Positions 8,681-52,225 of a stretch of 64,000 bases of DNA are shown here, one piece after another (within the stretch, counting starts at the first letter, position 1; each line of letters begins with the position of its first letter). Origin of the DNA: Octopus sinensis (taxonomy: Eukaryota); assembly GCF_006345805.1 (NCBI RefSeq), contig NC_043004.1, forward strand, positions 69,626,001 to 69,690,000, in the 5' to 3' direction. The notes beneath the pieces are model-generated. The model searched no databases. It was not told where the DNA came from and saw nothing but the letters and a program-made list of their open reading frames with translations. The position numbers and the translations under genes are program-made.

Positions 8681-9260
8681 ATTGTTGTGTCTGGGGAGAG
8701 TCATTCTCTTTTAGTGCCTTGTTATTTAACACACCGACAGGTAATGTTTCCACTCATTTACTTATTTATTCTTCCTAAAATTTTTATTGTTTCTTGCAAC
8801 CTTTTCAATAGTCGTTGACTCTGTTTTCCGAGCATCATTCTTTTTGTTTGTTTGTGCACATGTTTGTGGGTCAGTGTGTGTGTGTGTGTATGTTTGGATG
8901 TATGTATTCTGCATATTCATGTGTGTGTGTGTGTGTGTGTGTGTGTGTCTGTGTACCTCTGTCTCCTTGTGTGTGCACGTCTGAGTGTGTCTGTGTATAA
9001 GTATTTTTGTGACGATGTACTGTGTCTGTATGTATGTATGGATGTGTGTCTCCATGTGTACACAAATACTAACCCACATACACATGCACACAAGCAAGCA
9101 AAAAGAACGCAGCTTGGATACTGGACAGGGTCAGGGACTATTGAAAACGTTGCAAGACGCAGGGAAAATTTTAGGAAAAGTAAATGAGTGGAAACTTTAC
9201 CAGTGAGTGCGTTAAATAAAAAGGCACTAAAAGAGAATGACTCTCCCCAGACACAACAAT
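8681..9260. mobile_element. (TA)n-flanked foldback element with ~180-bp inverted arms, each carrying a U3-A8 hammerhead-like motif
   Basis: Ends attgttgtgtctggggagag / ctctccccagacacaacaat. Right arm 9137-9175: acta TTGAAAA cgttgc aagac gcagg GAAA at TT tagg. Mirror copy at 8774-8812 (-). Confidence 0.8.
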
Positions 9261-9279
9261 ATATATATATATGATATAG

Positions 9280-9505
9280 CTTCTTCCTGGCTTGGCTTTG
9301 TAAGCAAAGATTTACAGAGGAAGGATGCCCGTGACTGTTGCAGGCTTGCTGATGCTCAACAAATCAGCTCCAAGATAAACGTATGACCATAGAGGCTGCA
9401 AGTAAAGGTGGGCTGGTCAAGTTCGGTTGTAGCATCCTTGTTTTTCACCGCTTTTTTCTTGTCCTGCAGATGTCTTCAAAGGAGGCTGTTGCCCGGACGC
9501 CGGAC
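9280..9505 (-). mobile_element. Probable RTE LINE 3' end fragment
   Basis: Minus strand reads ATASFED..R.RKKR...and later EHQQAC, resembling the C-terminus of RTE/BovB ORF2; frameshifted. Confidence 0.5.
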
Positions 9506-10331
9506 ACACATATTTATATGCATGTATGTATACATCTAAATTTGCATGTGATGGAAACTATAACGTATTCCAGAGATCTGATTAAAGTCACTGAAGTGGT
9601 TTAATAAAACTGAAACATGTGTGAAGTTGTCCACCATATGACCAAACATTCAATCACTACTTTTTATTTTAATTATTTTTATTTAATTCAAATTTCAAGA
9701 TTGTCTCTCTTGCTTCTCTAAACCAGAATTAATCATTATGCTAACAATTTTCTTTTCTTTCTTTTTTTTTTGTCTTCTCTTTTTACTACAAGTGTGATTT
9801 TAAACATGTTCATATTGACTTAAACTGGAGGAATATTTGAATTTGTAGACCCATCAAATCCTATGCTTGCATGAAACAATGGATATTAAAAATTATTGGA
9901 ATGAAACAGGAAGAAGGAGACCCATGCCCCACCCCGCTCTCTGATTCCCACTAACAGTTTCTTGAGGAAGATCAAAGATGTTGGACTGTCTTCACCTCTC
10001 AAGATATTCTCTCCCCCTCCCCTACATACACACAACTTTTTTTTTTAAAGATGTCTTATATTTCTTCTTTGATTACAAACTCATTCTGCTTTATTGACTC
10101 TTTCATCTTTTCCACTCTCCTTCACATTATTAACAATTTCATCAGTGATACAAGCCTCTAAACATGGCTGCACACCTGGCTAGAAATAACAGACAAATCT
10201 CACTCAAATCACACCTGGCCGTTTTATATAATCGCTGAACAGGACGGTTTGGAGGAGCAATATAAACTTACAAAACCCTAAAATGACAGGATGGTCATGA
10301 CTGGAATACTTTCAATCACAGTTCTGTTTGA

Positions 10332-10560
10332 TTAACCTTTTCGTCACCAACCCAGCGAAAACCGGCTCTGGCTCTGAGTATAAATGTCTTGATTTCATAA
10401 GGTTTGAATTAAGATCTTCCACCAGACCTTAGTCACAATTTATGTTCCTAACACTAGCCGAATGATAACTAAGTTCTTTTACTTATTTCTTTGATATATT
10501 TAAAGTAATTGAAAGAAACACAGAGCATCTCAAAATAAATACAGTAACAAAACAGTTGAA
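10332..10560. mobile_element. TTAA-ended (piggyBac-type) MITE
   Basis: ttaaccttttcgtcacc ... agtaacaaaacagttgaa degenerate TIRs. Confidence 0.5.
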
Positions 10561-48608: not shown

Positions 48609-49014
48609 ATATATATATATATGTATATATATATATATTTTTGTGTTTGTATTTGTCCCCCCACCACCACTTAACAACTGATGTTGGTGTGTTTACATCC
48701 CCATAACTTGGCAGTTCAGCAAAAGGAGACAATAGAGTAAGTATCAGGCTTTAATAAAATAAATACTGAGATCATTTCATTCAGTTAACAATTCTTCAAG
48801 ATGGTGCCCCAGCATGGCCACAGTTTAATAGCAAAAACAGGCAACAAGTGAATGCAATGCTAGCCCTCTTTACACAAGCAATATGATGGAAGAAAGATAG
48901 ATTGTAGAGAGGTGTAGTGATAGGAGATGGGACGATAAATGGTGGGGGGGGGAGAATGGTAAATGGAGAAATCAATATGCACATAATGATCGTGAGAGAG
49001 ACCTAAATGTAAAT

Positions 49015-50251
49015 ATTATATATTCTAATCTCCTCCGTCATCACCCATCCTTTCACATTCAATTTTTTTCCTTCCTGCTTGCAGAGGTTGGGCATGTCTG
49101 GTAAGCTAGTGCACCAAACCTATACATGCATAGACAGTATGAAATATGTTACCACCCACTGCTTTGACCTTTTAGCATTCAGGTTACTCTGTCAAATGTA
49201 ATACTTATTTATTCACACCGTTTTGAATTAATTACGCATTATCTCATAGCTTTGAGAGTTAAATGATGTGATTGCTTATTTTGAGAATGTTATAGTAGGG
49301 TACAAATGAGTGGACAAATCTGGCTAAAACAGGTAGGATATTTGGGTTATATATGGACAGTTTAAATGTTAAAGGGTTAAGATGTTTCTGGTTAAAACGA
49401 AATTTCTTAAACTTTTCTAGCAAACCTTTCAAAAATACTTTTACAGTTTATTTAACCTCTCATAAAATTTAACTTTACGAAAGCAAAAGTAAGAGATTAA
49501 TGAAGTCATGCAATAATGTTTGTATTGGAATTTTCTCAGGTATGGAATGTATAGCAATAAAATTCCTCTCACTACAGGCACATGAGTGGCTGTGTGATAA
49601 GTAGCTTGCTTACTAACCACATAGTTCTGGGTTCAGTCCCACTGCATGGCACCATGGGCAAGTGTCTTCTACTATAGCCTCGGGCCGACCAAAGCTTTGT
49701 GAGTGGATTTGGTAGACGGGAACTGAAAGAAGCCCGTCGTATATATGTGTATATGTATGTGTGTGTCTGTGTTTGTCTCCTCCCCCCCCAAATCGCATGA
49801 CATCTGATGCTGGTGTGCTTACATCCCCGTAACTTAGCGATAGAATAAGTACTAGGATTGCAAAGAATAAGTCCTGGGGTCAATTTGTTTGACTAAAGGT
49901 AGTCCTCCAGCATGGCCACAGTCAAATGACTGAAACAAGTAAAAAGAATCAAAAAGAACCGCTAATTATGTTTTTGCATTCTTTTGTTTTTATCTTTTAC
50001 TTGTTTCAGTGATTAGGCTGCGGCCATACTGGAGCACTGCCTGGAAGTAGTCAAATGTATCTCACTTATTTCCTCAGCTGAGGTCGGAGTGAGTAGTATT
50101 GAGGAAAGGGATAATATGCTAAAGCAGTGCTGCGCAACCGATATTGGTCTGGTGCACTAGCTTACCAGACATGCCCAACCCCTGCAAGCATGAAGGAAAA
50201 AAATTGAACGTGAAAGGATGGGGGATGATGCAGGAGATTAAAATATATAAT
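49015..50251. repeat. Inverted repeat, ~105-bp arms (49015-49120 / 50146-50251) about 1 kb apart
   Basis: Arms are reverse complements with few mismatches; they include a family-D-like tail plus adjacent sequence. Confidence 0.85.
49573..49958 (+). mobile_element. Family A SINE
   Basis: Consensus match with a short internal deletion. Confidence 0.88.
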
Positions 50252-51878
50252 TTTTTTCCCTTTTACTTCTAGTTATAGTTTTAGTTCAGGTTTGCCGCCG
50301 AATTTTGAAAATAATTAAGTGTACCGCAGGTAAAAAAAAAAAGGTAAAAAGTATGGTTGGTGGGACAGAAACAGGTGTGCTGCTGTTGGCAAGATACATG
50401 GTAATTCCAGTTGGAAGAGAAGTAGGATGGTGGTGAAGGTGTGTTGGAGCTTACCCCTAAGATATAGAGAGGAGAGTGGGAAGTGGTACTGGTGGGTAGG
50501 TAAGTATGTGGGAGTGTGAGAGAACACATTAGTGTAATAGATAAGTCAAGAATAGTTCAGCAAACTTTGGTAATTGTTAAGTTTTGGTTATCCTGAGCAG
50601 TGGAAGTGTCCAATGTTTCAGACAGAAGTTGCTTAACAGAGTTGTATAATATCATAAAGGCTGGTAGGGGTGAGAAAGAAAGAAAAAAAGGTTTGTTGGT
50701 GGAGACAGGACGTAGAGAGTGCATTATTGCAGTGAATAAAAGAGGTGTAGAGAGTGAGGGTGATGGGTTATGAGGCAAGAAAGGCTGGGAGCTTGATTGT
50801 TGATCCAAGAAGCAGAGTGAAGGGCGAGATACTAAAGGTGGGAGAGCAGTAGTGGGAGTGCTTGGTTGAGGTGGAAGAAGGTCTGCTAGTGTAGTGTTAA
50901 TTAACTAATCCTCTCCAAGTTTGAGGTTTTGGTTATATATATATATATATATATATCATTTAATGTCTGTTTTCCATACTGGCATGGGTTGGATGGTTTG
51001 ATTGGAGTTGGTAAAGGTTGGGGCCTGCATTAGACTCCATCGTCTGTTCTGGTATGGATTCTATGACTAGATGCCCTTCCTAATGCCAACCACTTACAGT
51101 GTGTACAGGGTGCTTTTTATGTGGCACCAGCACCAGTTCAATTCTGCTGTGGTGGATGAGTCATATATATACATACATATATATATATATATATATATAT
51201 ATATATATATATATATATATATATATGTGTGTGTGTGTATGTACACACACACATTTACAGAAAATGTATTTAGTATTTTAGGATTTATAAAACTCAATAT
51301 ATATACTATATATATGTATATATACATATATACTAATATATGTGTATAAATACATGCATACACACACATGTCTATGTATGTCACGTCACGTCACGTGACC
51401 GACCAGACCATCAGATGTTGTTACACATCGCTGGTCACAATGCATTCGCATTGTTTTAGCCTTCAAATGACGCCACCCCGCTGGCTAAACGAGCAGGCCA
51501 GTCTATGTATGTACCTATCTATATATGTATGTATCTATTTGTATGCATCTATAAGTATCTATCTATCTTTCTATGTATATATATGTACATCTCTTACAAT
51601 AAGCATCCTCTTCTTAAGGTGTTTCACATAATTCCTTCAGTGTAAAAGCTGTTACCAATTTATTGTGATGACTTGCTGTAGAAGCAGCAACAAAAACTGT
51701 CGTTTTATTACAAGATTCTCTACATAGAACATTTATTTTACATGTTGCATATCTCTCCTTTATTTCACATCTAATATTCCATCTTTCTCTGCATTCATCT
51801 ATCTTTCTGTGTGTTTATCTACCTATCTATCTATTTGTCTGTCTGTCTGTCTATTTGTCTGTTTCTTCATTGTGTGTG

Positions 51879-52225
51879 TATTTGAACAAAGATTTCCTTA
51901 AATTAAAAATTATTAATTGTATAAAAAGAATCTTAAAAGAACAATGACATGAACATTTTGGGAGGAAGTTTTCACATTGTGTTAATGTGCTTTCACTGTT
52001 TACAGCTTTTCAAACACACATCTTATGGAGTCAGCCATATATACAGATTACCCTATAACGTGTGTTTGAAAAACTGTGAACGGTGAAAGCACTTATACAC
52101 AGTATGAAAACTTGTTTCTAAAAAGCTTGCTTCATTCTAGTTTTTTCTTTCTTTTTGCTTTTTTTTTTCAAGATTCTCTTTATATCGTTAATAACTTTTA
52201 ATTTAAGAAAATCTTTCTTCAAATA
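51879..52225. mobile_element. Foldback element with divergent U3-A8 hammerhead-like motifs
   Basis: ~150-bp imperfect arms; minus 51979-52019 gtgt TTGAAAA gctgt aa acagt GAAA gcacat TA acac; plus 52060-52100 TTGAAAA actgt ga acggt GAAA gcactt. Confidence 0.7.

Follow-up and report, generated by a model that had tools for sequence, protein, structure and literature searches.

We analysed a 64,000-nucleotide stretch of the Octopus sinensis genome (contig NC_043004.1, positions 69,626,001 to 69,690,000; hereafter the window), in which an initial annotation made from the letters alone had pointed to hammerhead ribozyme cores reading UUGANAA at five loci. Hammerheads usually carry a C3-G8 pair in their core, and the annotation took the recurrent U3-A8 combination for a compensatory double change that supports past or present function. 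Our analysis indicates, with a probability of roughly 85%, that these loci are remnants of the ends of repeat families, now decayed, that three of these families are tied to Penelope-like elements (PLEs), and that each locus carries a minimal type I hammerhead motif, which likely cut the RNA of its element in dimeric form, U3-A8 likely replacing C3-G8 in four of the five families. The surrounding genome measures 2.72 Gb with 36% G+C and has abundant microsatellites.

Hammerhead boxes in the window belong to five repeat families

The boxes listed in the initial annotation are all present: TTGAAAA at 9141(+), 8808(-), 33878(-), 37064(+), 52066(+) and 52013(-), the last given there as 51979, and TTGACAA at 21429(+). 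The layout described for them, a box followed on its 3' side by a hairpin, GAAA or GAGA and a UH site, holds for the hairpin and the UH site at every box; the GAAA reads GAGA at 33878 and AAAA, outside the description, at 8808. Every locus belongs to a dispersed repeat, and we scored the best 40 candidates of each family search. The families number five rather than about four unrelated ones (A at 9141/8808, B at 21429, C at 33878, D at 37064 and E at 52066/52013), and A and B are related to each other. Inverted repeats or palindromes occupy four of the five places. The hammerheads and the family ends that hold them are as follows.

8663..9278: family A 3' ends, 5'-truncated, an inverted pair adjoining (TA)n
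9141..9171, + strand: family A minimal hammerhead with U3-A8 box; GAAA, palindromic stem III, UU site and 3-bp stem I all present, closing pair of stem II broken (G.G)
8778..8808, - strand: mirror copy of family A, U3-A8; G12 changed to A
21308..21553: family B 3' ends, fold-back, left arm without a box
21429..21458, + strand: hammerhead of family B, which is related to A; box UUGACAA, all three stems (I, II and III) with lesions
33849..33878, - strand: family C hammerhead with U3-A8 and with both stem I and stem II intact; GAGA through an A14 to G change, and a single change within the stem III palindrome
36995..37151: family D 3' ends, fold-back
37064..37115, + strand: family D hammerhead; family state C3-G8, this copy decayed to U3/A7/A8, G10.1 lost and first stem I pair broken
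51879..52225: family E 3' ends, inverted pair
52066..52094, + strand: family E hammerhead, U3-A8, the best preserved window copy; stem II of 5 pairs, stem I of 6 pairs, stem III palindrome broken
51985..52013, - strand: mirror copy of family E, U3-A8; register of the cleavage triplet disturbed

Intact copies of the families form a full minimal type I hammerhead, in the order short stem I, box, stem II, GAAA, palindromic stem III and UH. Their family states combine a core box (N3-UGAN-N8-A) and GAAA with a Watson-Crick 3-8 pair; stem II is a hairpin, usually with G10.1-C11.1, and an optional extra base follows A9. A closing stem I of 3-6 pairs is present in intact copies, and in those of A, B, C and E a short palindromic stem III leads into UH. 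The loci are hammerhead cores, as had been proposed, and families A, B, C and E, four of the five, have U3-A8 as their family state.

With DNA as the anchor, and in rows that include the window copies, U3-A8 was found in 32/34 rows of family A, 28/30 of family C and 25/25 of family E. Family B had it in 23 of 27 rows (20 places), the rest being one C3-A8, one gap and two junction rows. Since the DNA queries held the box, we recounted A and C with endonuclease protein as the anchor: family C was U3-A8 in 42/42 rows (31/32 loci), and family A in 27/33 rows (25/30 loci), with one C3-A8, one U3-G8, one deletion and three non-homologous rows. An exact 30-mer of one C subfamily occurred genome-wide with U3-A8 1,831 times, against six C3-A8, one G3-A8, two U3-G8, two U3-U8 and no C3-G8. 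These subfamily counts amount to a founder state plus ordinary decay, and by themselves are no proof of covariation. At the 10% level, contigs of four runs (coded as four organisms) showed no other letter at positions 3 or 8 of a family C copy, a result silent on expression and cleavage. The excess of U3-A8 over mismatched combinations that the annotation had proposed as support for its claim is thus found in A, B, C and E, but within a family it merely copies the founder state; the evidence for covariation lies between families.

Family D is the exception. From its 37 rows, 11 fold-back rows were dropped (their 5' side is non-homologous, and two show C3 boxes); the 26 kept comprise 13 C3-G8, 10 C3-A8, two U3-G8 and one U3-A8, the last being the window copy itself. 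The pattern is one of CpG decay, with C7 in all 10 C3-A8 rows and G8 in all nine U7 rows, and independent decay predicts about 1.3 U3-A8 rows (arithmetic from the row counts), against the one seen. Family D is therefore canonical C3-G8, and the copy at 37064, initially read as compensatory and put forward as the substrate for a cleavage assay, is merely a decayed one.

Enrichment over shuffled sequence

The loose motif alone (box, stem II of at least 3 bp, and GAAA or GAGA) is not clearly above chance, with 8 matches in the window against 4.0±2.2 (maximum 10) in 40 dinucleotide shuffles. Four of the eight are loci of the annotation (9141, 21429, 33878 and 52066), a fifth is the mirror copy at 52013, and three look like chance. 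Rfam hammerhead families gave no window match at gathering score, and an E-value scan of the window returned no hammerhead among the best 150 of 408 matches. The claim rests on the comparison of families, and its non-chance status comes from the family alignments together with a genome sample of 120 evenly spaced 10-kb stretches (1.2 Mb), scored with a descriptor blind to positions 3 and 8. This sample contained 17 strict matches against 2.05 in 20 shuffles: five U3-A8 (0.15 in shuffles), three C3-G8, two G3-C8 and seven mismatched, so that matches with a Watson-Crick 3-8 pair number 10 against 0.45. The caveat entered in the annotation, that shuffled AT-matched sequence might hold the motif as often, applies to the loose form and not to the strict U3-A8 form.

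Penelope-like elements as probable parents

The motifs appear from these comparisons to be worn copies of hammerheads carried by the ends of PLEs, an identity that the initial annotation did not reach; families A, C and E are tied to such elements directly. Remnants of a GIY-YIG endonuclease lie upstream of all three on the same strand, with the hammerhead downstream of the endonuclease. A 784-amino-acid frame of family C (L153) contains RVT_1 (E 2.6e-8) and GIY-YIG (E 1.3e-4), the family A frame (L175) contains GIY-YIG (E 1.5e-6), and for family E sense-strand endonuclease remnants were found upstream in 3/25 segments. Among tandem C elements (L160), the motif stands just upstream of the open reading frame (ORF) as well as downstream of it, which is the layout of pseudo-long terminal repeats (pLTRs). 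Frames of A, C and P, the last a relative of A described below, have a C-terminal GIY-YIG with a CX2-5CxxC linker, in the form CX4CxxC in A and C. According to PMC8557442, the CX2-5CxxC linker belongs to Neptune and Nematis PLEs; the PLEs of that article show 5' truncation, inverted copies and (TA)n targets, all of which recur here. A/B and C/E constitute two distant PLE groups, with ORFs about 26% identical.

A reading of the palindromes as miniature inverted-repeat transposable elements was dropped after endonuclease remnants were found upstream. For the further families H, H2, I, J, K, M and O, 12 upstream segments yielded no parent, their matches belonging to other elements. The window also contains, at 59090-60659 (+), broken PLE-like frames with a linker of CxC-X5-C type and a YIG motif, ending before (TA)n; they are 33% identical to the L081 endonuclease and gave no Pfam match at threshold.

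Three core-pair states in one related group

Relatives of family A carry three Watson-Crick 3-8 states within a single group: C-G in family P and at 62307 in the window, U-A in A/B, and G-C in family G. Family G lies outside the window (L303-L332, e.g. L304:1560-1610, + strand; G000:C6:10008900-10009100, - strand) and is a young PLE-linked repeat of 95-97% identity with a 7-bp stem I and a 5-bp stem II. It has G3-C8 in 30/30 loci and in 4/6 copies in the 1.2-Mb sample; an exact 30-mer matches 1,046 times genome-wide, with G3-C8 in 99/100 among the matches listed. Its own endonuclease remnant lies about 1.6 kb upstream in 2/4 extended copies. The endonuclease of L320 was rejected as its parent, the G motif appearing in 0/20 regions anchored on it, and belongs to family P. 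Family P (L353:983-3724, L354:610-3741 and L359:150-200, all + strand), a PLE of very young age whose open frames span 914 and 1044 amino acids, has C3-G8 in 24/26 rows. The endonucleases of A, G and P are 52-56% identical to one another and 27-29% identical to that of C, the G sequence being an 83-residue fragment. Each of the three families has the extra G, and stem II, 5 bp long in all of them, changes pairwise from one to the next: GUUGC/GCAAC in A, GUCGC/GCGAC in G and GUCAC/GUGAC in P. Two further hammerheads of this A/B/G/P build, absent from the initial annotation, lie together in the window, in an inverted repeat at 62137-62438:

62307..62340, + strand: C3-G8 hammerhead of A/B build, with extra G and 5-bp stem II like family P
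62220..62253, - strand: mirror of the 62307 hammerhead, C3-G8, stem II decayed

These comparisons put at about even odds the proposition that the hammerheads work in all three states, in which case family G, with its more than 1,000 near-identical copies, would be an animal's natural G3-C8 hammerhead not reported before, and the three states together would form a swap series made by nature that shows selection for cleavage in transposing PLEs.

Further hammerhead repeat families (L256, L259, L062, L260, L220, L297) include I and O with U3-A8, and J, K and M with C3-G8. Both J and M are common: the 1.2-Mb sample contains 12 copies of J and 13 of M that span the box, and C4 occurs in several copies of J. 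Related hammerheads reading CUGACGA, CUGAUGA, CUGACAA and UUGACAA occur at L239:2529 (+), L260:176 (+), L209:8909 (+) and L175:2932 (minus-strand count), and this set is possibly a snapshot of a CpG route from C3-G8 to U3-A8.

Selection and drift

Across families, the modal 3-8 pair is Watson-Crick in 14/14 of those scored (permutation p 5e-5), and in 10/10 when counted by lineage (p 7e-4). Other pairs change in step as well: 10.1-11.1 differs between subfamilies of C, being G-C in 33/42 endonuclease-anchored rows and A-U in 24/30 window-type rows, and in stem I families A and B have U-A and C-G, respectively, at 2.2-1.2. The comparison suggests that the 3-8 pair is likely kept by selection, and that U3-A8 likely arose at least twice, because A stands closer to the families with C3-G8 and G3-C8 than to C. 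The annotation's reading of the paired substitution as covariation thus holds across families, where U3-A8 covaries with C3-G8 and G3-C8, and is not shown within them.

Several observations weigh against the interpretation of these families as PLE ends with a maintained hammerhead. The permutation test treats related families as independent, five of them having been picked in the initial annotation for U3-A8; H, H2, I, K and O enter it with 2-3 copies each, and it leaves out family N (two copies, A3-G8 and U3-U8). Core columns of A and C are 0.95-0.99 conserved against 0.91-0.97 for the downstream flanks, a likeness that fits selection on master copies only. Young family P has A9 changed to C in 23/26 rows, a core change that spread without an evident partner. 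Family D showed no endonuclease or reverse transcriptase (RT) match in 37 upstream segments of about 1.5 kb, and family B is linked to PLEs through its likeness to A, from 321-base stretches. In the 1.2-Mb sample, mismatched strict matches exceed shuffles too (7 against 1.6), three of the seven being decayed copies of paired families (A, H2 and M). The lowest-energy predicted dimer for A and for G does not form helix III. All seven window copies at the annotated loci carry lesions, and for that reason the strict descriptor has no match in the window. Finally, the hammerhead of the anole PLE was dispensable for insertion in vitro (PMC11167929).

The most probable alternative holds that the motifs do descend from PLE hammerheads but that these lineages have ceased to depend on the ribozyme, U3-A8 and G3-C8 having been fixed by drift in founders, through CpG loss and AT bias, and then amplified. 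Some of the observations above speak for it directly, namely the C9 of family P, core columns in A and C whose conservation hardly exceeds that of the flanks, and the unimpaired in vitro insertion of hammerhead mutants in PMC11167929; it can also draw on the ease with which A8 arises by CpG decay (10/26 family D rows) and on Naiad PLEs, which thrive without canonical hammerheads according to PMC8557442. We nevertheless regard drift as improbable: a mismatched modal 3-8 pair occurs in 0/14 scored families (family N left out), G3-C8 requires two transversions that AT bias does not favour, and stems I and II covary while their loops differ.

Proposed mechanism and state of the window copies

For hammerheads carried by PLE ends and kept by selection, we propose a dimer cleavage mechanism by analogy with PMC4209133, in which the palindromic stem III joins two motifs of a tandem transcript and cleavage is slow. 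Transcription across tandem pLTRs would place two motifs where they could pair via stem III and cleave after UH, perhaps with help from the element's protein; the anole PLE hammerhead of PMC11167929 cleaved only with its element's protein. In folding predictions, intact copies of C, E and H form the intermolecular helix III. Selection on transposing masters would keep the 3-8 pair Watson-Crick, as C-G, U-A or G-C, while inserted copies would decay. A likely route to U3-A8 would begin with the loss of the CpG in CUGACGA, which produces A8, and a later C3U change would restore the pair.

The window copies themselves are likely dead, each having a lesion and the inverted pairs being predicted to fold as long hairpins. 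The stem III palindrome is broken in 5/7 of them, and the core boxes of 8808 (G12A) and 33878 (A14G) fail individually. Function of these particular copies, which the annotation had left open as past or present, is unsupported because all carry lesions. That they act as live cis-acting ribozymes cutting host transcripts is very improbable: the copy at 52066 does keep its box, stem II, GAAA, UU and 6-pair stem I, yet beyond the lesions in all seven copies, six of them are embedded in inverted repeats for which long hairpins are predicted, folding prediction gives stem II a probability of 0.0 for both E copies in wider context, and no copy has a same-strand tandem partner in the window. Scarcely credible is an origin of the motifs by chance in AT-rich fold-back DNA, which fits the loose-motif count, the lack of Rfam matches at gathering score and the palindromes at four of five places, and which is largely refuted by the endonuclease-anchored rows, the strict matches of the 1.2-Mb sample and the genome-wide 30-mer counts, intact family copies having three stems and a palindromic stem III at a fixed position behind a PLE endonuclease.

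Relation to known hammerheads

U3-A8 in PLEs is already known, with the same UUGAAAA box. Cercyon PLEs of Schistosoma mansoni account for about 1,300 U3-A8 matches (Cervera and de la Pena 2014, PMC4209133), and Fig. S3 in the supplement of that article lists a PLE copy with the UUGAAAA box. Natural C3-G8 to U3-A8 covariation was likewise reported in an all-domain survey that cites earlier in vitro activity (Perreault et al. 2011, PMC3088659); in its excerpts the U3-A8 cases are not tied to PLEs and G3-C8 goes unmentioned. The U3-A8 class pointed out in the annotation is a published one. With Cercyon, the octopus families have in common the type I fold, short stem I, palindromic stem III and optional base between 9 and 10.1, as well as the placement in pLTRs of RT and GIY-YIG elements, mostly single or in opposite-strand pairs. 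Unlike Cercyon, U3-A8 here occurs in two distant PLE groups (A/B and C/E), the extra base is G and not H in A, B, G and P, and a G3-C8 family exists alongside, a state absent from those rows of Fig. S3 that were compared.

The anole Poseidon PLE of PMC11167929 also has a minimal hammerhead, naturally C3-G8, in which cleavage is lost with either single change, C3G or G8C, and partly regained with the engineered double change; in the octopus, G3-C8 is a natural family state. The anole hammerhead overlaps the start codon, whereas the motif here lies 0.3-1.6 kb behind the endonuclease. Non-LTR retrozymes (bioRxiv 10.64898/2026.07.22.740005) are similar in that their repeats descend from PLE pLTRs and contain type I hammerheads, but form head-to-tail tandem arrays, whereas the window copies are single or inverted; no tandem array covers any window hammerhead locus, which sets these loci apart from non-LTR retrozymes. 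Engineered G3-C8 hammerheads appear in PMC3884650, PMC8495972 and PMC11167929; the literature searched contained engineered cases only and no natural one, and earlier papers beyond it may already report such a case. New here are the C3-G8 (P) and G3-C8 (G) relatives of A and hence a three-state series in one group.

The motifs of the window thus belong to a ribozyme type already known; what is new is the host, in whose genome U3-A8 is abundant. Scaled from the 1.2-Mb sample, the genome would hold about 11,000 strict U3-A8 motifs (95% range 3,700-26,000) and about 6,800 C3-G8 motifs (1,400-20,000). As the annotation foresaw, a CUGANGA search would miss the U3-A8 class, and by these scaled numbers, which derive from small sample counts, it could miss half or more of the motifs. 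The more useful result is the series of C-G, U-A and G-C in related elements: that young families differ by paired changes in the core speaks for a role of PLE hammerheads in transposition, which may thus be put to the test on natural substrates.

Other features of the window

A 387-amino-acid open frame at 37191-38354 (+), with RVT_1 (E 1.6e-10), is a LINE-type fragment adjoining the family D fold-back. The 174-amino-acid frame at 16468-16992 (-), which gave no Pfam match, resembles a fragment of a Tc1/mariner transposase. Between (TA)n runs at 1842-2035 lies a near-perfect palindrome of 194 bases, unmatched in the 120 sampled stretches. Further fold-back elements are located at 13390-13730, 22534-22845, 34678-34825 and 55629-55774.

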